A DNA stretch of 64,000 nucleotides from an uncultured Candidatus Saccharibacteria bacterium (GTDB lineage: Bacteria > Patescibacteriota > Minisyncoccia > Phycocordibacterales > CAZPGN01). Numbering within the stretch: position 1 is the first letter of the stretch; the number at the start of each line of letters is the position of its first letter. Under the pieces are notes generated by a model, which was not told the DNA's origin, did no database searches, and saw only the letters and a list, made by a program, of their open reading frames with translations. The stretch is from positions 72,932-136,931 of the forward strand of contig CAZPGN010000001.1 of NCBI GenBank assembly GCA_964586635.1. The letters are read 5' to 3'. This document shows positions 10,448 to 55,602 of this stretch, one piece after another. Position numbers and translations under genes: made by a program.

Positions 10448-10562
10448 CATAACACAGCACAACAACCTCGGCGATCACACGACACGCGAGACTAGCATAC
10501 AGAGTAACAAATTTGGATGCTTAACGCTGTTCAGGCTGTGGATAGCCCAGCTTGCATTTGTA

Positions 10563-12803: not shown

Positions 12804-12925
12804 AATCAAATAGTAGCAAAGTTTGCATAACAAACAAGATATTGCTACAATATGATCACATAGTTCGTATAAAAACCAGTTGTACGAAATTGAAAAATTT
12901 TTTTAACTATTAATAAATTATTTTT

Positions 12926-13261: not shown

Positions 13262-13461
13262 AAATTTTTCAACATCGCACAACACGGCATATCTGGTTTC
13301 GCTACGCTACACCCAAATTGCTACGCAACTTCAGATATGTCGAAACGTTATACGCCATAATAAAAAGCCTCTATTGATTTTTTATAATAATTTTGGCAAT
13401 TTATTAGGTGAGGTCGAGATAACTTCAACAATTCAACATTAATTATCTAACATAAAAAATT

Positions 13462-13938
13462 ATGCCTAAAAAACCAGAAACATTTGGAGGATTTTCTCCT
13501 GAACCAGGGAGCAAAGATGAAGAAACAAGACAAGTTGAAAGTCTTGAGGAATGGCAAAAATATTGCGAAGAAATGTCAGAGGCGCGCGGAGAACCAAAAG
13601 AAGAAGATTGGGATAGAATAATGCAAGACGAAATGGAGTCAGAAGCGAGAGACGTAGAGGTTTATATTAGAAGAGCAAGATTAGCAGGAGACACGCGTAC
13701 TATTAGAGAAATAATAGATGATAAGGATGAGTTGGAAATTAAATTAAATGCATATACGGAACAAAGAAAAAAAGATGGTACCTATACTAATCCTTGGAAT
13801 ATACTCGTAGATTTTATGAAAGAGAATGTTTCTTCGTATGCTGCTTATCTCCAAAAGAGACAAGAAGAGGACGCTGAAGCCGATCCGTGGAATATCTATC
13901 TCGAATGGAAAGTTGGAAAGGACTTGAAAGATAAATAA
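13462..13938 (+). CDS. hypothetical highly acidic protein (Glu/Asp-rich)
   Basis: 158 aa, strongly acidic (EEWQKYCEEMSEARGEPKEEDWDRIMQDEMESEARD…). No recognisable family. Confidence 0.45.
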   Translation: MPKKPETFGGFSPEPGSKDEETRQVESLEEWQKYCEEMSEARGEPKEEDWDRIMQDEMESEARDVEVYIRRARLAGDTRTIREIIDDKDELEIKLNAYTEQRKKDGTYTNPWNILVDFMKENVSSYAAYLQKRQEEDAEADPWNIYLEWKVGKDLKDK

Positions 13939-14139
13939 ATTGCCAAAATTCTTAAACGAATAAGGAAAGCGGCTTTTTATTACAGCGTATAACAATGAAT
14001 ATGCGGTTCATGAAATTGCGCTTCTTGATTTTTCATGGAGGCGCAATTTCTTTCACCCATATTTGCCTCCGCTTCGCTACAGCAAACATCGCATATTCAT
14101 GAACGTTAGGCGAAATTTCATTTTTTACATCTATCACAT

Positions 14140-14844
14140 ATGCCCGAAAATTTTGAACCTACAATAGAACAAACTAAGCCATATTGGCAAAGAATGCGAG
14201 AGTTAGAAGCTCAACTTTTTCCTGAATTTAGGGATGAGCATTTTTGTATTGATTCACCAGAGACAAACAATTTTTATTTCGCCCCGAATGTACATTTCAA
14301 AAAAGATTTGGTAACAGAAGCAGATGTCGAAAATTTTAGAAAAGATCCAAAGCGACAAATGTTAAGCGTCGGGTCTGGTCCTGCATATTTAGAAAGACTG
14401 TTGGTACATTTAGGTGTAAACAAAGACAACATCATCCTTGCAGATAAAGAGCCGAGGGATTTGCCGACCGACTTCAAAACTAAAATTTTCGACATGTTTG
14501 GAGAATGGCCTGAATTCGAAGATGATCAAAAATTTGATCTAATAATATTTCCAGAAAATCCGTCAATCAATGTTCACTATGACTACGGCGAGGAGCGAAT
14601 TCAGGCGTTCACCTCACTCTTTGCAAAAGCATTGCAGCACTTGAAGCCAGAGGGCGAAATAAAAATTACTGGTAATCCAAACAGTGAAGAGATAACGGAA
14701 AAAGTTGAGCATGAGCTAAGGAAAGCAGGTTATGATGTTACGGTTCAAAATTTTTCCAACAAAGGAAAGGAATCATTAATTGTAGTAAAAAATGAAACAT
14801 CGCCTAACAGCGTGTATGAGGTTCAAGAAAAAGTGCGTAAATAA
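14140..14844 (+). CDS. putative class I SAM-dependent methyltransferase-like protein
   Basis: Motif I-like LSVGSGPAYLERLL, post-I acidic IILADKEP and motif II-like FDLIIFPEN are arranged in Rossmann-MTase order. Confidence 0.4.
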   Translation: MPENFEPTIEQTKPYWQRMRELEAQLFPEFRDEHFCIDSPETNNFYFAPNVHFKKDLVTEADVENFRKDPKRQMLSVGSGPAYLERLLVHLGVNKDNIILADKEPRDLPTDFKTKIFDMFGEWPEFEDDQKFDLIIFPENPSINVHYDYGEERIQAFTSLFAKALQHLKPEGEIKITGNPNSEEITEKVEHELRKAGYDVTVQNFSNKGKESLIVVKNETSPNSVYEVQEKVRK

Positions 14845-15066
14845 TTTTCAAAGGTTGCATTTTTTCTTTCACCCAAATTGCGCTGACGATAATCAGAGTT
14901 TAGTGATACAATGAAAGTATTGAGATAAGCAATGTTTAATCTAAATAACACGGCGCAACTTCGCATCATGCGGAAACGTTATGCGCCATAATAAAAAGCC
15001 GCTCATAAATTTGACTTATTTTTCCTTTAGGATATAATAGAATCGTTACAATTCACTTCAAACTAT

Positions 15067-15285
15067 ATGCGCAAAATTGACTTAAAAAATGTGGTGTGGA
15101 AAGAAGGAAAATATTATGTTTCCTGGAACCTAAACACGGCGATTTCTAGTTTTGGCGACACCAAAAAAGAAGCCCTTTTGGCGCTCCAAGAAGCATTAGA
15201 ATTATATTTTGAGGACATCCCAATTTCCAAAATAAACAAAGTGGAACGACCCGACTTGGTCCCATTTGTTTTTCAGCATGCCTAG
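15067..15285 (+). CDS. hicB: HicB-family antitoxin (UPF0150-like)
   Basis: 72 aa. It is immediately upstream of, and overlaps, a HicA-like toxin. The WKEGKYYVSWNLN…GDTKKEALLALQEALELYFE pattern matches the HicB N-terminal domain. Confidence 0.55.
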   Translation: MRKIDLKNVVWKEGKYYVSWNLNTAISSFGDTKKEALLALQEALELYFEDIPISKINKVERPDLVPFVFQHA

Positions 15286-15499
15286 ACCTATTCCCCTGAA
15301 ACAGGTAATCCGAGTCCTTAGAGATAAGGGCTTCTTTTTTGTGTCGCAGAAAGGTTCACACGCAAAGTTTCGTAAACCAGGAAGTCCAACTCGTACTGTA
15401 ATTGTAAAAATGGCAAAGAAAGAAGTACCGTACGGAACCTTTCAGTCGATTTTGCTTCAATCAGAATTAAAAGAAAGTGATTTTCGAGAGGAAAAATAA
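15278..15499 (+). CDS. hicA: HicA-family mRNA interferase toxin
   Basis: MPRPIPLKQVIRVLRDKGFFFVSQKGSHAKFRKPGSPTRTVIVKMAKKEVPYGTFQSIL matches the HicA/YcfA fold (KGSHxxF…P.H). The ATG overlaps the hicB stop (ATGCCTAG). Confidence 0.7.
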   Translation: MPRPIPLKQVIRVLRDKGFFFVSQKGSHAKFRKPGSPTRTVIVKMAKKEVPYGTFQSILLQSELKESDFREEK

Positions 15500-15534
15500 G
15501 TCAAACTTCAGATATGCGGATACGTTGTGTCGGG

Positions 15535-15557
15535 TCAAAGGTGTCAGGAACCTTTGA
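15535..15557. repeat. degenerate REP-like hairpin (TCAAAGGTGTCAGGAACCTTTGA) near the right end of the island
   Basis: Stem TCAAAGG/CCTTTGA. The loop TGTCAGGAA resembles the loop GGTCAGGAG of the canonical repeat. Confidence 0.3.
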
Positions 15558-15893
15558 CCAATAATGTTTAGTTCGTAATGCAATCAATAGTATAGCACTT
15601 AAGAAAAAAGAAAGCCTCGCGGATGCGAGGCGATCGATGAATCTCGGCGCATAAAACTGAAACCAAGGAGGTGAAACTAGTCTGCAGCGATTGAAGCGCC
15701 GAGAACTAAATGAACTAATTCGAGATTTTAATGCGAGGGCAATTAGCTTTCGGAAAACTGATTCTCACTGTAAAACTCTGCCCTCGCACTAGTAGTTTAG
15801 CATGGGATATCGAGCAGTCAATTACATTGCAATGTGAACAATAATGCGTAGAATGAAATCGGTACTGAACATTCAACCACGCGAGGAGGATGT

Positions 15894-16229
15894 ATGCAGT
15901 ATGAGAGATGGCTCTTCGTGGTGATTGCGCTCGCAGGGTATGTTCTCACGACGGACCCCGCGCATGGTTTTCAGCCAATTCCGCCTTACAGGACAACGGT
16001 GCAAAGTGCTGCGCCTCCCATGATGCGCGCAATCGCCGAGACCATTCCAGAGCGGTGCCGCTCACCTCGACCCGGGCGCGGTGAGGGCTATTTCATGTTC
16101 ATCCGCGTTGCTCCACATTGTGCGTGCGGACATGAACTCACGCTTCGAAACCCATTCAGGATGCGCCTGAATGTGCACTGCTTCGTTCACAAATTCCCTG
16201 AACCAATGACGGACTGCATTCGCCATTGA
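15894..16229 (+). CDS. hypothetical protein (signal-anchor-like N-terminus)
   Basis: 111-aa ORF preceded by AGGAGGATG. Hydrophobic N-terminus MQYERWLFVVIALAGYVLT. Confidence 0.35.
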   Translation: MQYERWLFVVIALAGYVLTTDPAHGFQPIPPYRTTVQSAAPPMMRAIAETIPERCRSPRPGRGEGYFMFIRVAPHCACGHELTLRNPFRMRLNVHCFVHKFPEPMTDCIRH

Positions 16230-41972: not shown

Positions 41973-42044
41973 GACCACGTGGCGAAGTGGTAACGCAGCG
42001 GTCTGCAAAACCGCAACGCGCGGGTTCGATTCCCGCCGTGGTCT
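41973..42044 (+). tRNA. tRNA-Cys (anticodon GCA)
   Basis: Acceptor GACCACG/CGTGGTC, discriminator U (typical Cys identity element). Anticodon arm GCGGT-CTGCAAA-ACCGC. T arm GCGGG-TTCGATT-CCCGC. Confidence 0.85.
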
Positions 42045-42338
42045 TAAGGCGGGAATCGAAGCCGACCCGAGAAAGCTAAACTGCTTTAGGTTTCTCGGGC
42101 GGCAGGCTCCGAAGGAGACTGTCTCGATGCGCCAAGAGGCGCCAGAGACAGTCGGGTGAGGAGGATTCCCGCCGTGGTCTTAAGGCGGGAATCGAAGCCG
42201 ACCCGAGAAAGCTAAACTGCTTTAGGTTTCTCGGGCGGCAGGCTCCGAAGGAGACTGTCTCGATGCGCCAAGAGGCGCCAGAGACAGTCGGGTGAGGAGG
42301 ATTCCCGCCGTGGTCTTAAGGCGGGAATCGAAGCCGAC
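42045..42338 (+). repeat. tandem direct repeat: 136-nt unit x2 plus a 22-nt third partial copy, beginning right after the tRNA-Cys discriminator; each unit ends with a 17-nt copy of the tRNA-Cys 3-prime end (GATTCCCGCCGTGGTCT)
   Basis: Units 42045..42180 and 42181..42316 are identical by eye; partial copy 42317..42338. Each unit has a 10-bp closing stem (GGCGGGAATC…GATTCCCGCC) and long internal hairpins (GCCGACCCGAGAAA…TTTCTCGGGCGGC; GACTGTCTCGATGCGCC…GGCGCCAGAGACAGTC). Confidence 0.9.
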
Positions 42339-42357
42339 TAGTGATTGTATATATTTT

Positions 42358-42439
42358 GCCCGGGTGGTGTAATTGGTAGCCACGATCGACTTAAGATCGG
42401 TTGCCGTAAGGCATGTGGGTTCGAGTCCCACCCCGGGCA
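42358..42439 (+). tRNA. tRNA-Leu (anticodon TAA), type II
   Basis: Acceptor GCCCGGG/CCCGGGC, anticodon arm ATCGA-CTTAAGA-TCGGT, variable hairpin TGCCGTAAGGCA, T arm GTGGG-TTCGAGT-CCCAC, discriminator A. Confidence 0.8.
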
Positions 42440-42450
42440 TTTTTGATGGG

Positions 42451-42473
42451 ATGAAGGGGTCAGGAGCCTTCAT
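42451..42473 (+). repeat. REP-like hairpin repeat copy (ATGAAGGGGTCAGGAGCCTTCAT) followed by TTTTG; terminator-like, after the tRNA-Leu(TAA)
   Basis: Plus-orientation copy of the 23-mer; …CCTTCATTTTGTC. Confidence 0.8.
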
Positions 42474-42628
42474 TTTGTCTGCCTATCGCGGTTGGAATAA
42501 ATGAAATAATCAGGGCACTTGTCAAGTACCTGAAGTTTGCTGATGAAAAGAAGCAGCCTTTTACGAAATACTTCGGATGCTATGAAAGTTTGAGAGACGA
42601 TGATTCGTGTGTTATTTTGTATTGACAT

Positions 42629-42701
42629 CCCCCTATAGCTCAATTGGTAGAGCAACGGACTCTTAATCCGCAGGTTGTAGGTTCGATTCCTACTGGGGGG
42701 A
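42629..42701 (+). tRNA. tRNA-Lys (anticodon CTT)
   Basis: D arm GCTC-AATTGGTA-GAGC, anticodon arm ACGGA-CTCTTAA-TCCGC (A27/C43 mismatch), T arm GTAGG-TTCGATT-CCTAC. Acceptor CCCCCTA/TGGGGGG with an unusual C1-G72. Discriminator A. Confidence 0.7.
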
Positions 42702-42716
42702 CACTTTATTAGTGGA

Positions 42717-42745
42717 TTGTCAATCTCGTCTGCGACATATATACT
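42717..42745 (+). promoter_or_regulatory. sigma70-like promoter for tRNA-Leu(TAG): -35 TTGTCA, 17-nt spacer, -10 TATACT
   Basis: TTGTCA at 42717..42722, TATACT at 42740..42745. tRNA start is at 42759. Confidence 0.4.
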
Positions 42746-42758
42746 GAAGCAAGTGTGC

Positions 42759-42843
42759 GGGCGAGTGGCGAAATTGGCAGACGCGCCAGCCTTAGGAGCT
42801 GGTGGAGAAATCCGTGGGAGTTCAACTCTCCCCTCGCCCACCA
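42759..42843 (+). tRNA. tRNA-Leu (anticodon TAG), type II, CCA encoded
   Basis: Acceptor GGGCGAG/CTCGCCC, D arm GCG…CGC, anticodon arm CCAGC-CTTAGGA-GCTGG, variable hairpin TGGAGAAATCCG, T arm GGGAG-TTCAACT-CTCCC, discriminator A, CCA. Confidence 0.85.
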
Positions 42844-42867
42844 AACCAAAGTTGGATGACTCATATC

Positions 42868-42905
42868 CAAAAAGCCCCGCCGCCGAAGGGCGCGGGGCTT
42901 TTTGG
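42868..42905. terminator. bidirectional Rho-independent terminator (GC hairpin flanked by an A-run and a T-run) between the tRNA cluster (+) and the giant surface-protein gene (-)
   Basis: CCAAAAAGCCCCGCCGCCGAAGGGCGCGGGGCTTTTTGGTTTTG: stem GCCCCGC(c)GCC / GGC GCGGGGC with loop GAAG. A and T tracts lie on both sides. Confidence 0.7.
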
Positions 42906-42919
42906 TTTTGCACAAGGCT

Positions 42920-45900
42920 CTATTGACCGAGTCTCACCTGCACCTGCTTTTGCAGATTCTCGATAAGTTTCTGGAGATCCTTCACTTGCTTCTCTAGTTC
43001 TGCCTCTGTAGATACGGACGAAGCTGTGGGTGCTCCAAGTTCTCCAAGTTTGGCGCGGGTCATGGGACCCACGAAGCCGTAGCCAGGATCGCTCGGCTTG
43101 GCTAGGTTGTATTTCTCTTGGAACTTACCGATGGCTTTCTGTGTAAGTGTTCCGAGGAACTCCGTCTCGCTGCCGGGTGATCCTGGACCAGTGTTTGCGA
43201 TCTTCGTGTCGGGATCGTTGTTCAAGAGCTGTTGGAGGCGCTTGACATCTTCGCCGCGGGTGCCGATGTCAAGCGAACGGGTGAAGGCCGCAGAGACCGA
43301 TGCCGGAGTTGCTGGTACTGCCGGGGAAACTCCGACAGAGGATACCTCCTGGAGCTTGGCGCGGGTCTTAGGACCGAGAACGCCGAAGCCAGTGGTTTCC
43401 TCGCTACCAGAAGAGATGATGCCGTGCTTCTTCTGGAATTTTTGGAGTGCTAATTTCGTGAGCAGGCCGAAGAAGTCCGTTTCGTTGTCGGGTGACCCCG
43501 GACCAGTATCCGATATTTTCGTATCGGGATCGCTGTTTAGAATCTGCTGGAGGCGCTTGACATCATCGCTTCTTGATCCCGTTTTAAGCACGCGGGTGAA
43601 GACTGGGGAAACCGATATTGCGGTAATGGAAGGGGTTGCAGGAGGGTTCGGTAGGGTTGCCGCAGATACAGATGCGCCCTGCGATGCGGATGCTGGAGCG
43701 GAAATTGCGGGAGTCTTCGACAGAACATGGTCGGAAACAGAACCGCCAAGGTATGACGGCGCCGAACCCCCGCCGCCGCCGCCCCCTCCGCCGCCAAGCA
43801 CATTGACTTTCGCGGAAACGGCACTCGAGGCCGCCGATTCTACAGAACCGCTCTCCTTTGAGGCCGACACTTTGTAGTAGTATGTGGTGCCGTTAGTTAC
43901 CGCTGTATCCGTATAGTTCGTAACATTGCCTGGGACATTCAGAAGCGGGAACGAGCCCGTATCGCTCGTATCGCGATATATGAAGTATCCGGTCGAGTCG
44001 TCAGATGAATTCCACGAGAGTGTAATGGTATTACTGCCCGGATTCCCTGCGGTCGCGGTCAAGTTCGCGGGCGCGGCGGGAGCGTCCGAGTTCGTCGCAG
44101 ACGAGAGCGCATAGAGCGAGAAGTGCGACCCTATCGAAGTAAATGCGACCGTTGAGACATTCGAAAGATTAGATGCCGGAGACGTAATGACATTTCCGCT
44201 CGAATCTTTGTAGGTCAAAACCGTCGAGAGTGATTCCCATTCTTTTTTGTCTTCGCTGTATGATACGACCTTCAATTTGTCTACTTCTGCCGAGGTATCC
44301 ACGTCGGAGAGCGCAAGTTCGGCTTTCGTATAAGTAAGCTCAATACTCGCTTTCTTGCCAGTCTGAAGATTTTTGACTTGAGAACTGCCAGAATATGCGT
44401 TAATGTCCTTCGCCTTTGAGGCCACTATGTTCACACTCACAGTGTTCGGGAAGTTGCTGGTTTCCTTGACGGTAAGATACGAGTTGCTGCCGGCCGAACC
44501 TAGTGTATTGGCATCTAGATCAACCTTGACCTTCGTTGCCGTATCGGAGATGCTTCCAGCGCTCGTGTCGGTAAATGTATTCGAGGTCATGAGGGTACTG
44601 GAAATCGAAGCCGTCGTTGTGAGCGCAACAGTTATAGACGAGGCAGAATTGGCGCCGATGGATATTGGGTTTGCCGCGGCCGCCGCTTCGACATATCCCT
44701 CCGCCGCCGCGAATACGCGCCATGTGCCTTCGCCAACGCTCAAGCGATAGGTGCCGTCAGTATCGGTCTTGGTCACAGCCTGACCGCCGCCGACGCGGAC
44801 AGCGCGCACGAAGGCATTGGCCGACAGAGAACCGCCCGCCGTTACCGTGCCGGAGATCGAGCGGGATGCGCTGGTCAGCACGAAATTTCTAGTGGTATTG
44901 CCTGAAATGGTTATCGAGGTCGGCGTGTCAATATAGCCCGGTTTAGAAACGATAACCTTGTAGGTTCCGTCGACAAGCGAGAGCCGATACGCTCCGGAGG
45001 TAGTCGCTTGCGTACCCGCGAATACGCCATTCGACTCGTTGACGAACGAAATCCATGCATCTGTAAGCTCGTTCCCTGATGTCGCTGCGGTATGATAGAC
45101 GGTGCCGGATACGACACTCAAGTTCGCACTGGCAGTATTAACCACGATTTTTATCGTTTCAGCGCCATTCACTTGCAAAACGCCGGAAAGTACCAGTGTA
45201 TTCGTACCATCATCGCTCGCCACAGAAATGTTCGACGACGGAACACCCTGAATGAAAGCTCGAATCGTAGTTGAGGCGCCATTCGCTATCTGAAGCGATG
45301 TCGAAGACGCGCTCGTTATTTCAACATGGTTCCCAAGCTGTGTACTCGTATCGAAGAGATCAATGAACGCCTTGGGAACTTCGAGCAGATTTCCGTTCGA
45401 GTCTTTTATGTTTATTGTGATAGTCCGCCTTGGCGCAACGCGGATGTTCTGCGTAGTGGAAGCTGTCAAGTCTATCGCGCCGATCGCCGCGCCGCTATTG
45501 CCAAGCGCGGCGATGCGCCCGTAACCTGGCTTGAATATGTCCGCGATCGAATATCCGGAACCAGAACGAACGCGCACCGAATATGCCCCATCGGAGCCAG
45601 AAACGGCCTCATTCGTGCCTGATGACCCGGAAACGCGAATGATGGCTCCCTCTATGCCCTCACCGGCAGTGAACGCGGCGTCGGAATTGCTGTCTTCGTA
45701 GATGTTTCCAGAAAGAATACTGAAGTTAAGCGTGGAGGCGGGTGCAAAATCAATGTTCTCCTGATTCGCCCCCGCGACAGTAACAGTCTGTTCAGTCATT
45801 TGCCCGAATCCTGGAATGAATACATTTACTTTCCATGCGCCGCTGTCAACATAAAGCGTGTATGTTCCGGCCGAAGAATCTGTGAATGAGTCTGCATGAC

Positions 45901-48900
45901 CAGGCCCATCTGTGCGGTAGGCAAACACAGGAGCGTTGCCGACCGCATTCGTGCCGTCCGTTACCCGGCCCGTAATGGTGTATCCAGGTTTTGTCATTTT
46001 AAGCACGAACGGATTTGCGCCGCTTACGCCAGTGGATGCCGAAGTTGAGCCGTCAATGAAGGCATTGCCGGACGAGTCTATGACAACGGAGACCTCACGC
46101 GACTGTCCGACTCCCGGAGCGAACGCACCGACATTGTACGAACCGGAAACAACGCGAATAGAAAATGTGCCATCGATTGCCGTTTGTCCGTGACTACCCA
46201 ACCCAAGGGAGGGCGAGTATGCGTACACGCCCGCATCGGAGACGGTGTTGCCGCTTCCGTCCTTAAGAATGCCTGTTATCGTCTTGTCCGCCACAGAAAT
46301 GGCAAATGTGTATTCTGTAACACGAGACCCGCCAACCGTTGCAATGCATGCAGTCGGACATCCCTTCACTTCGACCTCGATCGGTTTCGGCATTGACCAG
46401 GTGGTGCTAGGCGGCCCAGACATAAAGCCAGTATCGCCCTTCGGCATTGCCGGACCGAAACCGATACCCCAGAACCCGTTCACTTGCGGGAGCGGCATTG
46501 TAGTAACTTTTGTTGCGGAAAGAGCGGCTGTTCCTGGAGTAATCGTGCGCACCACGAATTCACCTGGGCCCCCCGCAAATACATCGAGCTGTTCAGTCGC
46601 TGTGAAAGTATTTAAGGCGGCTGTCATCTTGATATCTATGTTTACAGCAGATGAAGTCGCCGTAAGCGCGAAGTCTCTCGTGATAACGCTTGTCGAGGTT
46701 GCGAGCACCGGCGTCGGGTTGGGTTTGCCGAAGAAACCTGTGGTGGTGCCGGTAGGACTCACTATGGCATTAGTCGACAGCATGTATTCACCACCGCCAC
46801 CAAAGTTGTTCGACAAGAACTCGGTATTGATAGGAATATCGGTAAATTGGTACACGCCGCTCGCGTCAGTTGTACCGATTACTTGACCGATTTGAGGTGA
46901 AAACAGATTTATGTCAACACCTTGGAGGTTCGCGCCATTCCCAGATACTCTCCCACGAATGGTTGTCGTCGCTCCAGAAGAACCTATCCGTCCGTTTATA
47001 TAGATCGGGTTTGCGCTAAAGGTCTCAAGGAGTACTCCAGATGCGTTGCGTGATTTAATGTCTATCGAATAACCAGGGCTGTCGAATCCTTTCGGAATGG
47101 ATGGATTTTTTAGATCTACAACGCCGAACCGTAGGAAATCGTGCGCATCGCCCGATTCGCTGCGCGTCGCGGCATTAAGTGTGAGGGTTACGGTCTTCGC
47201 CGCAGCGTCGCGCGCGATAGCCGCGATGCCAACAGTCCCGGTGCCAGGCCCGTTGATGTCCTTATTTTGCTCATTCAGATATGGGTTGCGGGCTGATGAT
47301 GTCGCCGCACAGCAGATACCGAAATCTGCCGCGGAGGGGAAGGTGAGGACTATGGTGCCGTTTGCGGGTATTTGCCTTGAGATTGGAAGCTCGAAGATAT
47401 AGGTAGTCGAGGCGGAAACGAAATTGGACAAAGTTTGAATGTTCACCGGAGGAACGAAACCGATGCCGGAAGCGGAGAAATCTTTGTGCTCACCGAAGAC
47501 GCTTCCAGAAAAGGTGCCAGGCCCAAGAAGACCGCCACCCGAAGAAGAAAAGCCTGCGACAGTTCCAGTAAAGGTGCCCTCGGTCGTCATCGCATTACCG
47601 CTCATATCCTTGATATTGTTCGCGGTAACTGTGAAGGAAGTGCCGGCTGGAAGCTTTACGCCAGAGATTTGCGCAGTGCGCGTAGTCGAGTCATAGGTGA
47701 CAGAGTGCCCTGCCAGCGCGGAAAGCGTAATGCCTGAACCCGCAGTAACAGAGTAATTCGCAAGCGTCTTCGCATCACCCGAATTGACAGCCTCATTAAA
47801 GGAAATCGCTATGGAGAAATCGTTCGCGTTGGCAAAGAGAATTGAGGGCGGCTGTGTATCGGAATTCGTAGCTTCGACCGTCCAGTCCCGCGTTACCGTC
47901 CCCGCAAGAGGCGTCCCTGAAGTGTTCTTCAGTCCTCCCGCGCCTCCGACGAGCGTCAAACGCAACTGGGAGTTCGAAGGAAGCACATTGTTCGGAACAA
48001 AGTGGCCCTCTTGCGTAACGGGATTGTAATAGACAGTCCCTGGAATATTGGCGCCGCCAACGATGCTCATACTTACCGAGCCGGAGGTTGCCGTTGTCGG
48101 ATCTATTGTGTCATCAAAGACGAAGAGAAAATCATTCATGTTCGCCGCAATTGGTGCGCTTGCACTCGGTAGAACGGATTGCAGAATCGGCGCCGACGAA
48201 TCGGTAGAGCCCGAGGTCGTGAATTTCGAGATATATGCCGTTTGTGCGGCGACGCCGTTTGTATTCCGTACGCCGACCCCGACAGTGAGCGTATAAGTGC
48301 GATTCGCTCCGAGGGATGCAGGCATCATCGTAAGAAGATTCTTGCCGGTCGAAGTGCTCATAACGAAATTGGATAGTACCACCGCCGCGCCAAGGTCATT
48401 CACGAGCGTGATATTCGCGTTCGTGAGCGTGCTGACATTCATATTTGCCTGACTGAATTCTACTGACAACACGGAGAGATTCGTCGGCACATTCTGCGCA
48501 CTGTTGAATGGACTGGCGCCAAGCACCTGCGGGGGCACGAGATTCGTGGAGGTCTGGGTACTTCCGCCGGTCGTAAAGGTGATGGAATACGGCTGGCTTC
48601 CTGCCGTGAATCGGTTCTGGTCGAGTGGATTGCCGGAGATGTCGCGGATGGTGCTAGTGGCAATAAATGCGTAAATCGTACTGGGCGCAAGATTTGCAGA
48701 AAGGATGCATTTTGCCGATGGCTCAAATGCGCTCGGAAACGGATTATACTGTACGCTCCCGCAGAGGTTCGGGTTGGTCAGACTGCTTGCGTTGCGGAGA
48801 GTGACTGTCGTTGTTGCGGTGGCAGAGATAATAGTTCCGGTCGCGATCGTTTTGTTGAAATTGAACCCGATGTACTGCATATCGATTGGTACATTCGTGT

Positions 48901-50128
48901 TCTGGTCGGACGGGAACGACGCCGAAACCATCGGACTTTCGATGTCGAGAAAGCCGCCGCCGAAGGAGAACTCTTTTGGACTCATGCTGTTTTGCGGATA
49001 GACGCCGGCACTCGTTTGCAGAACAAAGTCGGCGCTATTGTCGCCAGTGTCGCCGCTATTGCCGCGAGTGCTTTCAAAACCTCCTTGACTCATAGAGGCG
49101 GCCGAGGCAGTCGAGGTAGATTTGCGCTCGTAACTATTGTCTACGGCGAGATCGGCGAGACGGGTACCTTCTGCGTTCCCCGCCGGCTGTGCCCCCCATG
49201 CGACTCGGTCAATAGATGTCGTCGTCGCGGACGATGTGGCAATACCAAGCGCGCCGTTTGCAATAAGCGTATTGCCGGATAGCGTCGAATACGCGGCGTC
49301 AAGAGCTGTTCCGGAAGAGGTGTAGTTGGTTTGTGAGCCTATAAGGAAAAAGCCATGCTTAGGTATTACGGTGCGGTAGTAGGTAAGAGTTTTCGAGCTC
49401 GCGATTCCGTCCGCATCATAGAGATGAGGGACCAATCCAGAACCCTGCAGATTAAACGCAAACTCGGAAGGGTTGTACAGCTCAAAGAATTCATCGCCCG
49501 CATTACCAGTCGCCCCGAGTCGAAACTCGCTTATCTTAATAGGCACGGTTTGCTCGAGAAGGATAGCGCGACTGCCAGTGAACTGCGTACCAATGGAACC
49601 TCCCGAAGTTGTAATCCAATTTGGCGATGTGGTTGCGTAAAATTGGTGGCCGTTCGTGAGACCAGCCGTAGATGTCGCGAGCGCGACTACAAAAAATTCC
49701 GTGGAGATAGACCCGACCGCGCCGTTGCCCGTGTCGACCGTAATAGTCTGCTCGGTGCTTGTTGCGGGGTCTATGACCATGTTGGCCGCGGTATTAAGAA
49801 GCGTGTCGGAATCGGGTTGGAAACCGAGATTCGCACCGGATTCTCTATAAAGCTGAAGTTTCCAGATCTCGCCATTCGTCAGTTTTGCGACATTCATCTG
49901 CGGAGTCGAAGTCGCCCGAATGGAAACTTTGACATTGGTGAGCGTGGCGCTTCCCGACGATTGAAGAAGACGAAACTGCAAGAGCGGTATGTACGCGCCG
50001 CCTCCAGCTCGCTGATTTTCAAAAAGAACATCGATGGGCGGAGCATTTTCGATAATGGCCGCTCTGGCAACACCCGGCACTGTAGATGCGACTGCGAATA
50101 AGACAAGAGCGATTGCTCGTAACCTCAT
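42920..50128 (-). CDS. giant secreted cell-surface protein (2402 aa): signal peptide, long array of beta-sandwich (Ig-like / CarboxypepD_reg-like) repeats, poly-Gly linker, two C-terminal peptidoglycan-binding (PG_binding_1-like) domains and a terminal coiled coil
   Basis: N-terminus MRLRAIALVLFAVASTVPGVARA. Recurrent SGTVT…G…TDGTYRL-type repeats. A GGGGGGGGGG run. Two copies of LKTGSRSDDVKRLQQ(I/L)LN.DPDTKI…TGPGSP…TDF(F/L)G.LT..A(L/I).KFQ.K. The C-terminus is EKQVKDLQKLIENLQKQVQ. Confidence 0.85.
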   Translation of the reverse strand: MRLRAIALVLFAVASTVPGVARAAIIENAPPIDVLFENQRAGGGAYIPLLQFRLLQSSGSATLTNVKVSIRATSTPQMNVAKLTNGEIWKLQLYRESGANLGFQPDSDTLLNTAANMVIDPATSTEQTITVDTGNGAVGSISTEFFVVALATSTAGLTNGHQFYATTSPNWITTSGGSIGTQFTGSRAILLEQTVPIKISEFRLGATGNAGDEFFELYNPSEFAFNLQGSGLVPHLYDADGIASSKTLTYYRTVIPKHGFFLIGSQTNYTSSGTALDAAYSTLSGNTLIANGALGIATSSATTTSIDRVAWGAQPAGNAEGTRLADLAVDNSYERKSTSTASAASMSQGGFESTRGNSGDTGDNSADFVLQTSAGVYPQNSMSPKEFSFGGGFLDIESPMVSASFPSDQNTNVPIDMQYIGFNFNKTIATGTIISATATTTVTLRNASSLTNPNLCGSVQYNPFPSAFEPSAKCILSANLAPSTIYAFIATSTIRDISGNPLDQNRFTAGSQPYSITFTTGGSTQTSTNLVPPQVLGASPFNSAQNVPTNLSVLSVEFSQANMNVSTLTNANITLVNDLGAAVVLSNFVMSTSTGKNLLTMMPASLGANRTYTLTVGVGVRNTNGVAAQTAYISKFTTSGSTDSSAPILQSVLPSASAPIAANMNDFLFVFDDTIDPTTATSGSVSMSIVGGANIPGTVYYNPVTQEGHFVPNNVLPSNSQLRLTLVGGAGGLKNTSGTPLAGTVTRDWTVEATNSDTQPPSILFANANDFSIAISFNEAVNSGDAKTLANYSVTAGSGITLSALAGHSVTYDSTTRTAQISGVKLPAGTSFTVTANNIKDMSGNAMTTEGTFTGTVAGFSSSGGGLLGPGTFSGSVFGEHKDFSASGIGFVPPVNIQTLSNFVSASTTYIFELPISRQIPANGTIVLTFPSAADFGICCAATSSARNPYLNEQNKDINGPGTGTVGIAAIARDAAAKTVTLTLNAATRSESGDAHDFLRFGVVDLKNPSIPKGFDSPGYSIDIKSRNASGVLLETFSANPIYINGRIGSSGATTTIRGRVSGNGANLQGVDINLFSPQIGQVIGTTDASGVYQFTDIPINTEFLSNNFGGGGEYMLSTNAIVSPTGTTTGFFGKPNPTPVLATSTSVITRDFALTATSSAVNIDIKMTAALNTFTATEQLDVFAGGPGEFVVRTITPGTAALSATKVTTMPLPQVNGFWGIGFGPAMPKGDTGFMSGPPSTTWSMPKPIEVEVKGCPTACIATVGGSRVTEYTFAISVADKTITGILKDGSGNTVSDAGVYAYSPSLGLGSHGQTAIDGTFSIRVVSGSYNVGAFAPGVGQSREVSVVIDSSGNAFIDGSTSASTGVSGANPFVLKMTKPGYTITGRVTDGTNAVGNAPVFAYRTDGPGHADSFTDSSAGTYTLYVDSGAWKVNVFIPGFGQMTEQTVTVAGANQENIDFAPASTLNFSILSGNIYEDSNSDAAFTAGEGIEGAIIRVSGSSGTNEAVSGSDGAYSVRVRSGSGYSIADIFKPGYGRIAALGNSGAAIGAIDLTASTTQNIRVAPRRTITINIKDSNGNLLEVPKAFIDLFDTSTQLGNHVEITSASSTSLQIANGASTTIRAFIQGVPSSNISVASDDGTNTLVLSGVLQVNGAETIKIVVNTASANLSVVSGTVYHTAATSGNELTDAWISFVNESNGVFAGTQATTSGAYRLSLVDGTYKVIVSKPGYIDTPTSITISGNTTRNFVLTSASRSISGTVTAGGSLSANAFVRAVRVGGGQAVTKTDTDGTYRLSVGEGTWRVFAAAEGYVEAAAAANPISIGANSASSITVALTTTASISSTLMTSNTFTDTSAGSISDTATKVKVDLDANTLGSAGSNSYLTVKETSNFPNTVSVNIVASKAKDINAYSGSSQVKNLQTGKKASIELTYTKAELALSDVDTSAEVDKLKVVSYSEDKKEWESLSTVLTYKDSSGNVITSPASNLSNVSTVAFTSIGSHFSLYALSSATNSDAPAAPANLTATAGNPGSNTITLSWNSSDDSTGYFIYRDTSDTGSFPLLNVPGNVTNYTDTAVTNGTTYYYKVSASKESGSVESAASSAVSAKVNVLGGGGGGGGGGSAPSYLGGSVSDHVLSKTPAISAPASASQGASVSAATLPNPPATPSITAISVSPVFTRVLKTGSRSDDVKRLQQILNSDPDTKISDTGPGSPDNETDFFGLLTKLALQKFQKKHGIISSGSEETTGFGVLGPKTRAKLQEVSSVGVSPAVPATPASVSAAFTRSLDIGTRGEDVKRLQQLLNNDPDTKIANTGPGSPGSETEFLGTLTQKAIGKFQEKYNLAKPSDPGYGFVGPMTRAKLGELGAPTASSVSTEAELEKQVKDLQKLIENLQKQVQVRLGQ

Positions 50129-50282
50129 GGTATGTAAATGAAAATTGATAATGTTTAATCAGAACGAAAAATGGCAAGGATTGCTGTCCTTGCCAAGTAT
50201 TATATTTTCTTTTCGCCGGAAGCAACAGAAGGTTATCCCCGTTCAAGAAAAACGTCGGCTATATATAAATAGGTTAAAATGA

Positions 50283-50324
50283 AAAAGCCTGTGAGAGCGG
50301 CAAGTGATGCCGCTCCCACAGGCT
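50283..50324 (-). terminator. Rho-independent terminator downstream of the pilin-like/SPFH operon (minus strand)
   Basis: The minus-strand reading GCCTGTGGGAGCGGCAtcactTGCCGCTCTCACAGGCTTTTTCATTTT gives a roughly 15-bp stem followed by a T run. Confidence 0.6.
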
Positions 50325-50900
50325 TCAGTTTAGAACAATTTTTATTCTTGCGACTCCAGTCCATAACTTGGGCAAGAGTCGCGTTCTCACCTCCTTTATG
50401 AAATTCCCATAATCATCTGGGTCGGGTTCGTATTTTTCCGACCCCTTATTGATTTGGGTAAGCTCTCCGCAGAGAGCGTCGTCAAGGTCGAGCATTCCCG
50501 ACTCAAACTGGTGAGGGTCGAGAATGTATCTTCCCTTCTCCTCGGTCGGCAGAAGTACGCCGACCGAGAATGTTCCCCTCCAGGCCCTCTCGCCGAAATG
50601 GTCCACGGCTCGTGAAAGACGAGCCTTGAACCCGACAGTCCTGTGCGGCGGCAGAGTGTCCTCTATGATGAGGACACTCTGCCGACGCCATACTCGAACT
50701 GGGATCTCCCCCGTTGGGGCGTCCTCCTCCGAGGGGGAGCCGTGATACCACTGCCCGCGGAGGAAGCCTCGACGCGACCACGACGCAACCGACGATTGTT
50801 CGTCGACTGCTCCGAGAAATAGATGCAGACAGAGTGTCATGGAGAACAGCACCCCCGCTCCTGTCAAGACCTTCTTCCAGACTCCTCTGAACTGCATCAC
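50325..50900 (-). CDS. hypothetical secreted/membrane-anchored protein (191 aa)
   Basis: N-terminal hydrophobic segment VLTGAGVLFSMTLCLHLFLGAV. Last gene of the operon before the terminator. No family recognised. Confidence 0.4.
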   Translation of the reverse strand: MMQFRGVWKKVLTGAGVLFSMTLCLHLFLGAVDEQSSVASWSRRGFLRGQWYHGSPSEEDAPTGEIPVRVWRRQSVLIIEDTLPPHRTVGFKARLSRAVDHFGERAWRGTFSVGVLLPTEEKGRYILDPHQFESGMLDLDDALCGELTQINKGSEKYEPDPDDYGNFIKEVRTRLLPKLWTGVARIKIVLN

Positions 50901-52417: not shown

Positions 52418-52891
52418 TTAACGAAAGATACCTCCTATTTGCTCAAGGATATTGCCGATATTCCCGCCTGTGCCGCCCGCACCCTGGCCAGGAGCGGCCT
52501 GAACTCCGGGAGATTGCACTGCTGGGCCTTGGAATACACCTCCTCCCGCCGTAACGCCAAACGATCTGCCGACAAGCAATACAAGGCTGTAAACTGATAC
52601 GAGCACAAAGAGGGCAACGAGGCCCCAGGTCATTATCTCGCGCCCTTCAGCTCTATTGCTAGAGTCTTTTGCCGAGCTAATGTACTCAACGAGCCCCCAC
52701 ATGAAGTAAATCACCGCGATCGTAATAACGATAGGGATGATTATATTGAGGATGCTCTGCACCTGCACAAGTATCGTCTGAACAGTGCTCTGATCACGAG
52801 TCGCAGTTTGGGCAAAAACAAGCACGGGAGCAAAATACATGCCAATTGCCGCCAAAACGCGCGCATATACGCTGGTAATATAATTATGCAT
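52418..52891 (-). CDS. small secreted 2-TM pilin-like protein (paralog 4) with Gly/Gln-rich C-terminal tail
   Basis: Signal-like N-terminus, core IIIPIVITIAVIYFMWGLVEYISSAKDSSNRAEGREIMTWGLVALFVLVSVYSLV, then a low-complexity GGGVFQGPAVQSPGVQAAPGQGAGGTGG tail. The start is trimmed to MHNYIT. Confidence 0.45.
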   Translation of the reverse strand: MHNYITSVYARVLAAIGMYFAPVLVFAQTATRDQSTVQTILVQVQSILNIIIPIVITIAVIYFMWGLVEYISSAKDSSNRAEGREIMTWGLVALFVLVSVYSLVLLVGRSFGVTAGGGVFQGPAVQSPGVQAAPGQGAGGTGGNIGNILEQIGGIFR

Positions 52892-53002
52892 AATTATATG
52901 TTGTTGACTGTGGTATGTTACTTTTTTCGACCAAAAATATAACTGGCGACATACCGCGCCATCCCGTGCGCGCCGCTTCGGCATGCACGGGATGGCGCGC
53001 TA

Positions 53003-53467
53003 CTAGAAGCCAAAAAGTCCTCGCAGGGCTTCGCCAAAAAGCTGTTGGGATGATCTGATGGGCGAAGTCTGGCTTCCTCTAGAACTGGGTTGAGTAGCGG
53101 AGAAGCTACCCGATGAACTCCCGGCAAATCGCAGTTGCGGCACATTAGGCTGGGTATTCTCAAGATCGAGTGTCCGAGCAACAACATTAACGAGACCATA
53201 GACCGATGTCATTACAAAAAGCGCTATCACTCCCCAAATCATTATTTGTCTCCCCTCCTGCTTCGCATCTCCCGCGCCCTTTATGTATTGGGCAACTCCC
53301 CACATGAAATATATAAGCGCGAGCGCGATAATGACCGGAATGATACCGTTCAGCATCGAAAGCACTTTATCAATAAGTGTCCCGAGCGTCTGACCTTGCG
53401 CAAATGCGGTCCCAGACGGCAAAAGCGCGACAGATAGAAAAGCTATGACTTTATCTATTTTTTTCAT
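53003..53467 (-). CDS. small secreted 2-TM pilin-like protein (paralog 3) with Ser-rich C-terminal tail
   Basis: Signal peptide MKKIDKVIAFLSVALLPSGTAFAQG. Core GIIPVIIALALIYFMWGVAQYIKGAGDAKQEGRQIMIWGVIALFVMTSVYGLVNVV. Confidence 0.5.
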   Translation of the reverse strand: MKKIDKVIAFLSVALLPSGTAFAQGQTLGTLIDKVLSMLNGIIPVIIALALIYFMWGVAQYIKGAGDAKQEGRQIMIWGVIALFVMTSVYGLVNVVARTLDLENTQPNVPQLRFAGSSSGSFSATQPSSRGSQTSPIRSSQQLFGEALRGLFGF

Positions 53468-53468
53468 A

Positions 53469-53882
53469 TCAATTTAGGAGTCCTATTGTACTTTGAACGA
53501 CCCCAGCAATAATGTCAGCTCCGACTAAGATACCGATTCCGATGACCGTCCACAGAAGCGTCGCCTTCGCAGTCTCAAGCTGTTTCTCGTCGCCGCGTGC
53601 TGTGACAAAAAGGAACCCCGCGTACACAATAAAGAGAATGGCGACGGGAATAGCAAGCTGAACGAGCGCGTCAAGTATTTTTGCAATTAGCTGGTTGAGT
53701 GTGCTTACCTCCCCAAGCGGATTCGTGAGACCACCTCTTGTACCGCCAGAACTTGGTTGGAACACGCCCGTTCCTTGCGCTCTTGCGACACTCACCGAGA
53801 CAAGGTGAGCGCCTAGCACAAGCATAGCGCATATCGTGCGCGCCCCGTATCTCATTTTCTTAATTGTGTGGATAAATCGCAT
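53469..53882 (-). CDS. small secreted 2-TM pilin-like protein (paralog 2)
   Basis: Signal peptide, then LAIPVAILFIVYAGFLFVTARGDEKQLETAKATLLWTVIGIGILVGADIIAGVV. Same architecture as the neighbours. Confidence 0.5.
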   Translation of the reverse strand: MRFIHTIKKMRYGARTICAMLVLGAHLVSVSVARAQGTGVFQPSSGGTRGGLTNPLGEVSTLNQLIAKILDALVQLAIPVAILFIVYAGFLFVTARGDEKQLETAKATLLWTVIGIGILVGADIIAGVVQSTIGLLN

Positions 53883-53883
53883 A

Positions 53884-54285
53884 TTAGATTTCTACGCTAC
53901 CGCCAGTAAGGGCAAATAGGATAAACCGCACGATAATGTATGCCGCGGCCGCAAGCGCGATGCCGATCACCGTGTTCTTCATTATGTCTTTTGCGTCGCT
54001 TCGCTGACTTTCGTTCCCCGCAGAAGTTATAAAGAGAACTCCAGCGACACCAAACGAAAGCGTTCCGACCACTACGGCGAATGTCACAAAGAATTGCAAC
54101 ACGCGATCTGCAAGGCCTCCCTTTCTGATAAGGTCGTTGAAGGTACAGTTGTACACGCACGGCACTATTGGCTGTTCGCTCTGTGCATACGCGACTGGCG
54201 CGAGCGCCGCGGTTCCTCCGAGAACGGAAAGAACGGCAAACGTGACGAGACACAATATAGCTATTTTTTGTCCGGCTGTGCGCAT
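53884..54285 (-). CDS. small secreted 2-TM pilin-like protein (paralog 1)
   Basis: Signal peptide MRTAGQKIAILCLVTFAVLSVLGGTAALAPVAYAQ. Two hydrophobic helices separated by a short polar loop (TSAGNESQRSDAKD), as in TrbC/VirB2 pilins. Confidence 0.5.
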   Translation of the reverse strand: MRTAGQKIAILCLVTFAVLSVLGGTAALAPVAYAQSEQPIVPCVYNCTFNDLIRKGGLADRVLQFFVTFAVVVGTLSFGVAGVLFITSAGNESQRSDAKDIMKNTVIGIALAAAAYIIVRFILFALTGGSVEI

Positions 54286-54288: not shown

Positions 54289-55602
54289 TTAAAATGGTGT
54301 TTGAAATAATTGCCCGAGCTGTTCCCTGGCGCGATTTATCGCTTCTAGCTCCCGAAGCCTGCCGCCGACTACGGCATCTATCATACCCGCGAACACCTGC
54401 CGCGAAGCAATCGGGAATGGATCGAGCCACCCTCTCGCGATGAGCCCTGAACGGCTGACCACATCAAGGAATGGGTCGGTGTTGCCTTGCGCAAGGGCAT
54501 CGCGGCGTGCAGATGCCAAGCGGAGGCCGTTTGCGGCAAGTTGCGAATTATTGCCCGATGCAAGCGCGCTGATAATTGAAAAAGCGGCGGCCGGGTTTTG
54601 CGACGCCCTGGTGAGCGCCAGTGCATAGACAGCGCCAAGTGTCGTTGTGCGCCTCTCTCGAATTTGCGGAACAATTGCGGCATCAAAATTGAGGTGCGGA
54701 TTGATCGCTCGAATAAGGGACTCGGAGCTCGCATAATCGAGATACAGCGCGACCTGATTTCCGGCAAATGCTTCCATCGCAGAGGCAAATCCTCGATTCC
54801 AGGTATAGAGACGGCTGTCAATGTTGCTGAACTGGGTATAGAACCGGAGTGCCGCATCTGCAGGAAGCAAAGGACTATCGTCAGGAGACAAACCAAATGC
54901 GAGATGCACGAGCTTGGTGGCAGTTCTTGCGACAATTTGATCCCCCGATTGCACTAGCAGAAGCGCGAGAATATCTGGAGCATTGGGAATGTTGAACGCA
55001 TCACCAAGCGCGATCGCGCTCTGGGTTATGATACCGCGATCGCCGCGCTTGGTAAGGCGGGGCGTATTCGCAACAACTTCCTCCCAGTGTTGGGGCGCCT
55101 TGGCAATGCCTGCGCTTGCAAACATATCTCGATTCCAATAGAGCACAACGGGGTCTATTAACCAGGGCAAACCGAGTACTCCCTCTGGCGCAAGAAACAG
55201 TTCTCCAGCCTCCGCAAATGTGTCTCGGAACGACCGCTCCGGCAAATTTTCATATGGAATAGGGACGATCTTATCTGCATGCCTTATAATGAGCGAATTT
55301 GGAAGAATGACGATATCGGGCCCGCGGCCGCTCGCGAGCGCGGCGACAAGCTCTTGGTCGAAGGTTATTGGATTTCGCTCGGAATAGCTAACGCGGAGAC
55401 CTCGGAACGCGCGCGCCGCCTCGGCCACAGCTTCTCCAACTCCCGCCTCGGGCAATGTCCCCCAAATGACCACGGAGCCAGAAAGTTCGGAAGAACCCCC
55501 ATTGCCGCCAAGCGAAGTCGCTGAAAACAAAACGAGTGCCACGACAGAGAGGAACATAAACACCCCAAGGACAACGAGCTGGAATGTAGTTAGATTCTTC
55601 AT
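54289..55602 (-). CDS. membrane-anchored extracellular solute-binding-protein-like protein (ABC SBP family 1-like)
   Basis: N-terminal TM, then GSVVIWGTLPEAGVGEAVAEAARAF…GPDIVILPNS. This resembles the SBP_bac_1 N-lobe (…TLTVW…F…PDVV). No permease or ATPase genes are adjacent. Confidence 0.45.
   Translation of the reverse strand: MKNLTTFQLVVLGVFMFLSVVALVLFSATSLGGNGGSSELSGSVVIWGTLPEAGVGEAVAEAARAFRGLRVSYSERNPITFDQELVAALASGRGPDIVILPNSLIIRHADKIVPIPYENLPERSFRDTFAEAGELFLAPEGVLGLPWLIDPVVLYWNRDMFASAGIAKAPQHWEEVVANTPRLTKRGDRGIITQSAIALGDAFNIPNAPDILALLLVQSGDQIVARTATKLVHLAFGLSPDDSPLLPADAALRFYTQFSNIDSRLYTWNRGFASAMEAFAGNQVALYLDYASSESLIRAINPHLNFDAAIVPQIRERRTTTLGAVYALALTRASQNPAAAFSIISALASGNNSQLAANGLRLASARRDALAQGNTDPFLDVVSRSGLIARGWLDPFPIASRQVFAGMIDAVVGGRLRELEAINRAREQLGQLFQTPF

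Follow-up and report, generated by a model that had tools for sequence, protein, structure and literature searches.

A conserved giant surface protein family of Parcubacteria and other CPR bacteria, with a possible role as a structural envelope protein

The gene and its product

The 64,000-nt stretch of DNA analysed here (the window, to whose positions all coordinates refer) carries on its minus strand a complete gene for a giant envelope protein (42920..50128), an uninterrupted open reading frame (ORF) of 2402 codons with a mature product of about 244 kDa. The frame contains no frameshift and is collinear with full-length orthologues, and a protein search shows that the product is 100% identical to [quoted passage not shown] in NCBI, which comes from a metagenome-assembled genome (MAG); Candidatus Vogelbacteria belong to the Parcubacteria group of Patescibacteria, or Candidate Phyla Radiation (CPR). 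An earlier note on this DNA had described a wall-anchored surface protein with a signal peptide, repeated beta-sandwich modules, a poly-Gly linker, two recently duplicated peptidoglycan-binding domains and a terminal coiled coil, and had suggested an adhesin-like fibre, a candidate host-attachment factor with a potential phase-variation site. The class of protein appears to be right, judging from its Sec-type N-terminus, long ectodomain, flexible linker and putative non-covalent peptidoglycan-binding module; the ORF is not split, and its product matches both peptidoglycan-binding and Ig-like domains, the two points on which the note had let its description stand or fall. The nature of the modules, the age of the duplication and the proposed variability are revised below.

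Domain architecture of the ectodomain

The first 23 residues (MRLRAIALVLFAVASTVPGVARA|A, 50060..50128; this and all other parts of the gene described below lie on the minus strand) appear to form a Sec signal peptide, recognised in the sequence by its n/h/c layout and its end at ARA|A, and orthologues keep the pattern AxA|AI[TI]..APPID right after it, which agrees with the earlier description. To resolve the remainder, Pfam was run both on the full-length protein and on its sequence cut into ten overlapping pieces of 320 aa, and AlphaFold2 (AF2) on two 1200-residue halves with a 49-sequence family alignment as input. Domain calling and structure prediction, both of which the earlier note had recommended, bear out a long Thr/Ser/Gly-rich beta-sandwich ectodomain: the AF2 models (mean predicted local distance difference test scores, pLDDT, of 81.6 and 79.9; predicted template modelling scores, pTM, of 0.47 and 0.52) are all-beta in the ectodomain, with beta-sandwich across aa 24-2107, and three Pfam families exceed their gathering thresholds there, namely Big_5 (51.2 bits vs 23.6), CarboxypepD_reg (101.9 vs 32.3) and fn3 (30.8 vs 25).

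The mature chain begins with a beta domain (aa 24-193, 49550..50059) that is seen in the AF2 model, has no Pfam match and is the least conserved part of the ectodomain (41% identity among close orthologues and 14% among distant ones). The next region is lamin-tail-like (LTD, PF00932; aa 194-392, 48953..49549), with a Pfam score of 27 bits that is below the cut-off of 34.3, a value that the homologous regions of two other family members do exceed (P0055, 76 bits; P0046, 36 bits). Four Big_5 bacterial Ig-like domains (aa 396-858, 47555..48943; Pfam, AF2) contain the conserved pair Cys456/Cys474 and precede a family-specific conserved core of about 420 residues (aa 859-1280, 46289..47554), which has no significant Pfam match and whose landmarks are the vicinal Cys939-Cys940, the signature W.[IV]G[IVM]GPAMP (about aa 1220-1229) and a CxxxC motif (1257/1261). 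Downstream of the core, Pfam and AF2 show an array of CarboxypepD_reg (transthyretin/CnaB-like) beta-sandwiches with interspersed unannotated modules (aa 1281-1840, 44609..46288), followed by a conserved unannotated beta module in the AF2 model (aa 1841-2012, 44093..44608; 62% identity in close orthologues). About six CarboxypepD_reg/transthyretin-like domains, with unannotated beta modules between them, lie within aa 1281-2012. The last domain is of the fibronectin type III family (aa 2013-2105, 43814..44092) and matches Fn3 chains in PDB as well as the Pfam profile.

Altogether, the ectodomain of about 2080 residues comprises some 20 different beta-sandwich domains. By composition, S+T+A+G make up 44%, Cys 0.2% and Met 1.0%; the isoelectric point (pI) is 4.8 for the acidic ectodomain and 9.0 for the basic C-terminal module. 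Although alike in fold, the modules do not repeat one another in sequence, as the word “repeated” in the earlier description would imply: in a domain-by-domain BLASTP comparison, used because a whole-protein self-BLASTP is uninformative (contained high-scoring segment pairs are culled), identity reaches 41% at most and the majority of pairs go undetected. Each module is therefore individually constrained.

Fold searches return only generic Ig/CnaB/CopC-like matches with very low global TM-scores (<=0.14 on the query), among them the Ig domains of LdtMt2, the surface layer (S-layer) proteins SbsB, SbsC and Sap, TIE proteins, pilins, SdrD, UafA and the MG domains of alpha-2-macroglobulin. The resemblance of the tandem CnaB/Ig-like domains to Gram-positive pilins and to the B-repeat stalks of MSCRAMMs (microbial surface components recognizing adhesive matrix molecules; TIE, PitA, BcpA, SdrD, UafA) raises the possibility of a host-attachment fibre, that is, a wall-anchored stalk of about 80 nm with an N-terminal tip that would bind the host cell of a presumably episymbiotic bacterium. 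The divergence of the N-terminal domain, which lies outside the match in most homologues from distant classes, would suit such a tip; CPR cells do attach to hosts (bioRxiv 10.1101/2020.05.14.094862), and in other CPR, surface proteins of very large size are taken to be adhesion factors (PMC13059738). Against this, neither Pfam nor the fold search recognises a catalytic, lectin, thioester or adhesive tip domain, or any other binding domain, in the protein, and He et al. ascribe the imaged host contact to pili (bioRxiv 10.1101/2020.05.14.094862).

The glycine hinge and the peptidoglycan-binding module

The ectodomain is joined to the C-terminal module by a hinge of ten glycines (aa 2112-2121, 43766..43795) that is detected by Tandem Repeats Finder (TRF) and, in the aligned orthologues, stands directly after the fn3 domain. 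The poly-Gly linker of the earlier note is thus real, although it had been placed at 43772..43800 and is not a (GGC/GCC)n tract: the GGN codons are mixed (GGC GGC GGA GGG GGC GGC GGC GGC GGG GGT), and no perfect run is longer than (GGC)4. In 22 homologous loci, other CPR classes included, the giant ORF has a poly-Gly of 5-15 residues within its last fifth, always with mixed synonymous codons and same-codon runs of <=4. Because the position is kept across these loci while the codons are scrambled, the tract seems to be selected as a peptide; it carries the signature of protein-level selection for a hinge, and possibly a processing site, and not of a mutable DNA tract. A Ser/Ala/Pro-rich linker of about 55 residues follows (aa 2122-2176, 43601..43765), disordered in the AF2 model (pLDDT <35 over aa 2113-2174), so that the whole flexible linker amounts to about 65 residues.

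Beyond the linker lie two PG_binding_1 domains, copy 1 at aa 2177-2261 (43346..43600; Pfam, AF2, PDB sequence matches) and copy 2 at aa 2282-2366 (43031..43285; Pfam, AF2). The Pfam profile (PF01471, cut-off 23) scores 40.8 bits in two stretches when aa 2161-2402 are searched and 36.2 bits with the whole protein; in the AF2 model, each copy is a bundle of three main helices (aa 2188-2264 and 2293-2365; pLDDT of about 88-96), as expected of such domains. The family profile matches solved Fn3 domains and the peptidoglycan-binding domains of 1LBU, SleB and CtpB (PDB sequences including 6TCI and 4C2C). The protein ends in an amphipathic Gln/Leu-rich helix of 27 residues (aa 2375-2401, 42926..43006; residues 1173-1199 of the AF2 model), about 3.5 heptads with hydrophobic residues at 3-4-3-4 spacing, which fits the proposed terminal coiled coil. 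The C-terminus, a hydrophilic amphipathic helix ending ...QVQVRLGQ, shows no LPXTG sortase signal with a membrane span, and Pfam scans of the protein give no SLH (S-layer homology) or CWB2 match. The PG_binding_1 pair is the only recognisable retention device of the protein, and the C-terminal module is predicted to bind peptidoglycan non-covalently.

The coordinates in the earlier note are correct to within a few bases, yet the two domains are not near-identical: the copies share 55-56% of amino acids and 65% of nucleotides, and the sole DNA repeat detected in the giant gene is 40 nt long at 80% identity. The antisense ORF at 43098..43877, whose repeated peptide had been taken as a sign of a recent tandem duplication, does exist, and the peptide is a shadow of the two copies. 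In the window, the pair is thus an old one. Across the family, the identity of the two copies within a protein ranges from 43% to 99%; in five members (P0040, P0005, P0021, P0006 and P0003, e.g., L001 10001-17110) it is 82-99%, compared with 56% in the window. The second copy is scarcely or not aligned in 10 of 43 close members, and the C-termini of 52 members differ as well (a similar terminal helix in 25, an end at the peptidoglycan-binding domain in 15, a Ser/Thr-rich tail in 4). These patterns indicate that, within the family, the anchor module has repeatedly been duplicated, lost or altered by gene conversion.

The same data bear on the view of the gene as a phase-variable contingency locus, in which slippage of the GGC tract and unequal recombination between recently duplicated peptidoglycan-binding copies would generate on/off or length variants. 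TRF does detect a short triplet tract, and the turnover of the anchor in the family, with highly similar copies in some orthologues and little or no second copy in others, could be read in this way. Nevertheless, the tract is imperfect and never exceeds (GGC)4, its glycines are conserved with scrambled codons, and the copies in the window share only 65% of nucleotides; moreover, since the triplet tract is in frame, slippage within it cannot switch the gene off. Slipped-strand phase variation is accordingly unsupported here and very improbable.

A family of fixed architecture in CPR bacteria

A protein search identifies about 45 full-length collinear orthologues of 2300-2500 aa with 45-60% identity, all under generic protein names, in Vogel-, Harrison-, Taylor-, Sung-, Wolfe- and Kaiserbacteria and in unnamed Parcubacteria. 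More distant homologues (25-32% identity over aa ~200-2100) are present in Peregrini-, Gracili-, Magasanik-, Falkow-, Moran-, Nealson-, Wildermuth- and Gribaldobacteria and in Microgenomates. The core is highly specific: aa 859-1280 match only 105 of 1.84 billion representative proteins, and the core lies well inside members of >1500 aa, starting, among the matches listed, at about aa 630-1540 in roughly 45 members of >2000 aa (up to 2969 aa). A scan for W.[IV]G[IVM]GPAMP with one genome per species finds 69 loci that share the signature; the credibly named lineages are all CPR, and a few MAGs have doubtful automated names. Some homologues (L049, QMVG01000082.1, 3.2 kb, and several in third-party annotation, TPA, MAGs named “uncultured Gammaproteobacteria/Saccharibacteria”) are on contigs labelled Micrarchaeota or Gammaproteobacteria; most likely, the non-CPR labels reflect mis-binning or unreliable automated naming and not real occurrence outside CPR. 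Three distant members that were scanned (P0055, P0058 and P0046) keep Big_5 and CarboxypepD_reg, and P0055 and P0046 also LTD; all three lack PG_binding_1, which implies that the anchor is exchangeable and points to a modular swap.

The protein in the window aligns collinearly with the family over its full length and shares its signature motif, its conserved Cys pairs and its poly-Gly downstream of fn3. In a 52-sequence alignment, the ectodomain modules are 41-71% identical among close members with a gap fraction of <=0.05 over aa 24-2105, and the linker and the anchor are the variable parts. Each of the six cysteines (456/474, the vicinal 939/940 and 1257/1261) is kept in 41-43 of 43 close orthologues, which suggests that the pairs form disulfides in the exported protein. 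Compared with a Taylorbacteria genome, the giant protein is 55-56% identical, TopA 61% and RelA 52%; in a second genome comparison, the values are 56% for the giant protein and 52% for MiaA. Thus, among close genomes the protein changes about as fast as TopA, RelA and MiaA, whereas across distant CPR classes it diverges somewhat faster than housekeeping proteins (27-32% vs 34-50% identity). Taken together, the comparisons are best described by a CPR-restricted family with a fixed length and the fixed order LTD-Big_5-core-CarboxypepD_reg-fn3. Searches of the full-text literature found no description of such a giant family, and the combination of orthology, fixed architecture, poly-Gly hinge and housekeeping-like rate appears to be previously undescribed. 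The highly expressed “PGBD proteins” of Paceibacteria (Kuroda et al. 2024, mBio) were considered as possible members and rejected, as PMX_810_sub_00350 is a 2079-nt gene that encodes about 690 aa.

This pattern of conservation weighs against a host-attachment fibre. Comparison of orthologue lengths, another check that had been suggested, shows a fixed 2300-2500 aa, with neither repeat-number variation nor near-identical repeats; about 20 domains are individually conserved with hardly any indels, at a housekeeping level and across lineages with presumably different hosts. With the LPXTG motif absent, phase variation unsupported and no recognisable binding tip domain, the adhesin or host-attachment role seems doubtful, if still a serious contender.

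A structural coat, possibly of the S-layer type

In tandem-repeat and contact-dependent adhesins, the number of repeats typically varies and evolution is fast. Because the family shows neither trait, the reading favoured here is that the giant protein is a constitutive structural envelope or coat protein of a Parcubacteria bacterium, non-covalently anchored to peptidoglycan; its probability is put at roughly 0.45. After export, the PG_binding_1 pair would bind the cell's own peptidoglycan non-covalently, the Gly/Ser/Ala/Pro linker would cross the wall, the terminal helix may pair or bundle neighbouring molecules, and the ectodomain would form a permanent outer coat, most likely as the protomer or a major component of an S-layer-type array. 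Under this scheme, the protein would not serve as an on/off-switchable, host-specific adhesin. Several traits are S-layer-like, namely the acidic ectodomain with its basic anchor, the low content of Cys and Met, the abundance of S+T+A+G and secretion with a separate predicted wall-anchoring module. The monocistronic look of the gene, the swapped anchors of distant members, the glycosylation genes beside three of six annotated loci and the presence of SbsB, SbsC and Sap among the fold matches are counted on the same side.

Cryo-EM of host-attached groundwater CPR cells has revealed that they lack an outer membrane and have an S-layer whose periodicities are 3.8 and 10 nm (bioRxiv 10.1101/2020.05.14.094862), and the composition of the CPR envelope has been described as unclear (PMC5220378); in the literature found, no protein is assigned to the CPR S-layer. 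Many of the orthologue MAGs bear NC_groundwater isolate names and may belong to the same cryo-EM project (bioRxiv 10.1101/2020.05.14.094862). The giant protein is possibly the protomer or a major component of an S-layer-type array on groundwater CPR cells. The most specific form of this idea, in which the whole family would be the S-layer protomer of Parcubacteria and other CPR, i.e., a glycoprotein of unusual size (~244 kDa) and unusual conservation with exchangeable C-terminal anchors and with poly-Gly as a hinge or processing site between lattice and anchor, is put forward with considerable reserve.

The conservation, the fixed length and the wall anchoring are also compatible with a non-crystalline wall scaffold or spacer that would brace or space the thin peptidoglycan envelope of ultra-small cells, or scaffold surface machinery, with no ordered S-layer and no adhesion. 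The pTM values of 0.47-0.52 for the 1200-residue halves may hint at inter-domain packing, and the disulfide-type Cys pairs would suit a scaffold. This explanation is computationally inseparable from the S-layer, no interaction partner is conserved in the gene neighbourhood, and it is considered rather unlikely.

A number of observations weigh against a coat of the S-layer type. Abundance, lattice formation and peptidoglycan binding of the giant protein are proposals only. A size of 244 kDa exceeds that of typical S-layer proteins, and these usually diverge fast, unlike the giant family. The fold searches match pilins and MSCRAMM stalk domains (TIE, PitA, BcpA, SdrD, UafA) as well as S-layer proteins, and the known S-layer anchor types SLH and CWB2 are not matched by Pfam. 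Codon usage shows only a weak shift toward C-ending codons (GC content at synonymous third positions, GC3s, 0.566 vs 0.513; effective number of codons, Nc, 53.5 vs 55.2). The family is detected in tens of clusters only and may not be universal in CPR, and some CPR (Absconditicoccaceae) have SLH-domain proteins as S-layer candidates (PMC13059738).

The gene neighbourhood gives a mixed picture. ORFs within 6 kb of the giant gene were clustered for 72 loci and the top clusters annotated, and no neighbour gene is conserved; the best clusters are an fn3 protein (12 loci), PilB (6) and a DsbA-like protein (4), with sugar-nucleotide and glycosyltransferase genes scattered. The PilB-type ATPase gene would suit a host-attachment fibre and the DsbA-like genes a wall scaffold. 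Glycosylation genes adjoin the giant gene in three of six annotated loci (L001, L002 and L003), and no glycosylation cluster is present in the window, L005 or L006, so that enrichment is not claimed. In L001-L003, the products of the glycan-assembly cluster include a Wzy_C+TPR protein (728 aa), glycosyltransferases, NeuB, CTP_transf_3 (a CMP-sugar transferase), DegT, a Polysacc_synt flippase and a Bac_transf initiating transferase; the layout (L001 4919-7105 and neighbours, L002 and L003) recalls S-layer glycosylation (slg) clusters. Some 6 kb downstream, L001 encodes a second LTD protein of >1350 aa.

Comparison with known surface proteins

In mode of action, the closest models are the S-layer proteins of Bacillales (SbsB and SbsC of Geobacillus stearothermophilus and Sap of Bacillus anthracis) and the CnaB-domain stalk proteins. 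Like the giant protein, SbsB, SbsC and Sap, which are among the fold matches, are Sec-secreted, acidic and Cys-poor, and consist of a chain of distinct Ig-like domains (6-9 in their case, arranged as beads on a string) with a separate non-covalent anchor; they are often glycosylated, with glycosylation genes nearby. They differ in being 2-3 times smaller, in their N-terminal anchor, which is of the SLH type or binds secondary cell wall polymer (SCWP) in place of the C-terminal PG_binding_1 pair, in their rapid divergence as opposed to the housekeeping-like conservation here, and in a lattice that is proven for them and hypothetical here.

The stalk proteins (SdrD, TIE proteins, BcpA, PitA and UafA) are linked covalently through sortase and LPXTG, which is absent here, and possess ligand-binding A domains or thioesters, none of which is detected in the giant protein by Pfam or fold search; their repeats are often near-identical and variable in number, whereas here the domains are unique and the length is fixed. 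The same holds for tandem-repeat (“periscope”) adhesins and MSCRAMMs, with copy-number-variable, near-identical repeats, compared with no DNA repeat of >40 nt and a gap fraction of <=0.05 in the present case. Simple-sequence contingency loci contain a long perfect tract whose slippage shifts the frame or alters the promoter, in contrast to the in-frame imperfect triplet tract described above. The wall enzymes with PG_binding_1 (the Zn D-Ala-D-Ala carboxypeptidase of Streptomyces albus, 1LBU; SleB; CtpB; phage endolysins) contain the same three-helix module by sequence, but there it targets a catalytic domain to the wall, and here, with no catalytic domain, it would anchor a 2100-residue structural ectodomain.

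Giant surface proteins are already a recognised feature of CPR genomes (PMC13059738). Absconditicoccaceae (Vampirococcus, Absconditicoccus and Strigamonas) likewise encode many surface-targeted proteins of >1500 aa with fn3 and adhesion-type domains (PMC13059738), although these are heterogeneous, lineage-specific sets and the present proteins are one orthologous family with a fixed order in several CPR classes. What is added is the recognition of a conserved, CPR-specific family of giant envelope proteins. It provides a concrete S-layer candidate, a single, monocistronic-looking, conserved and putatively wall-anchored 244-kDa protein with orthologues in Parcubacteria and homologues in other CPR classes. 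The sequence lends itself to searches of existing metaproteomes, and the AF2 models to fitting into subtomogram averages. If it is merely another large surface protein, the finding is ordinary, and the corrected reading still averts mis-annotation as a variable adhesin.

Transcription and other features of the window

The giant gene looks like a transcription unit of its own, as terminator-like hairpins are found on both sides. The upstream one is strong (50284..50326, minus strand; a 19-bp stem followed by a T-run) and would end the preceding operon of Band_7 and 190-aa protein genes; the downstream one is weak (42874..42891, minus strand, with a T-run), is recognised by a consensus match only and lies 29 nt past the stop codon. 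A promoter scan gives 6 matches vs 7.4 in shuffled sequences, i.e., no excess over chance. A perfect 9-10-bp hairpin (TGGCAAGGA...TCCTTGCCA) followed by TTTTTCGTTC (50172-50195) may act as a leader stem-loop or as an attenuator; it lies some 45 nt ahead of the start codon, within the 196 nt that separate the upstream terminator from the ATG of the giant gene. The leaders of orthologues are AT-rich, with TATAAT-like boxes near the start codon and no obvious Shine-Dalgarno sequence. Four tRNA genes (Cys-GCA, Leu-TAA, Lys-CTT and Leu-TAG) occupy 41973-42843 on the plus strand, just past the end of the giant gene, with which they converge, and the listed ORF at 42470-42913 (minus strand) is a mere antisense shadow of this cluster.

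Genes around the giant ORF encode a short IF-2, RbfA, ClpB, TopA, GyrA and five tandem T4SS_pilin-type proteins, a content that fits a small CPR genome. Several tandem small membrane proteins of the T4SS_pilin/TrbC type are encoded at 52418-54285, where the contig gene calls give five such pilin genes, and a solute-binding protein follows at 54289-55602; T4SS_pilin/TrbC-type arrays are reported among the highly expressed genes of other Paceibacteria (Kuroda et al. 2024, mBio). An island of low GC content at 12000-16000 (0.36-0.39 vs ~0.50 elsewhere) contains a tyrosine recombinase gene (Phage_integrase, 11991-12833, minus strand) and the unannotated ORFs 13462-13938 and 14140-14844, and is probably a small integrated mobile element. 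Genes for a ROK kinase, PGI, 6PGD, G6PD, GH15, GH57 and a GT4/starch-synthase-like transferase follow one another on the minus strand at 1085-10465; together, these carbohydrate-metabolism genes form an oxidative pentose-phosphate and glycogen-type module within this CPR genome.

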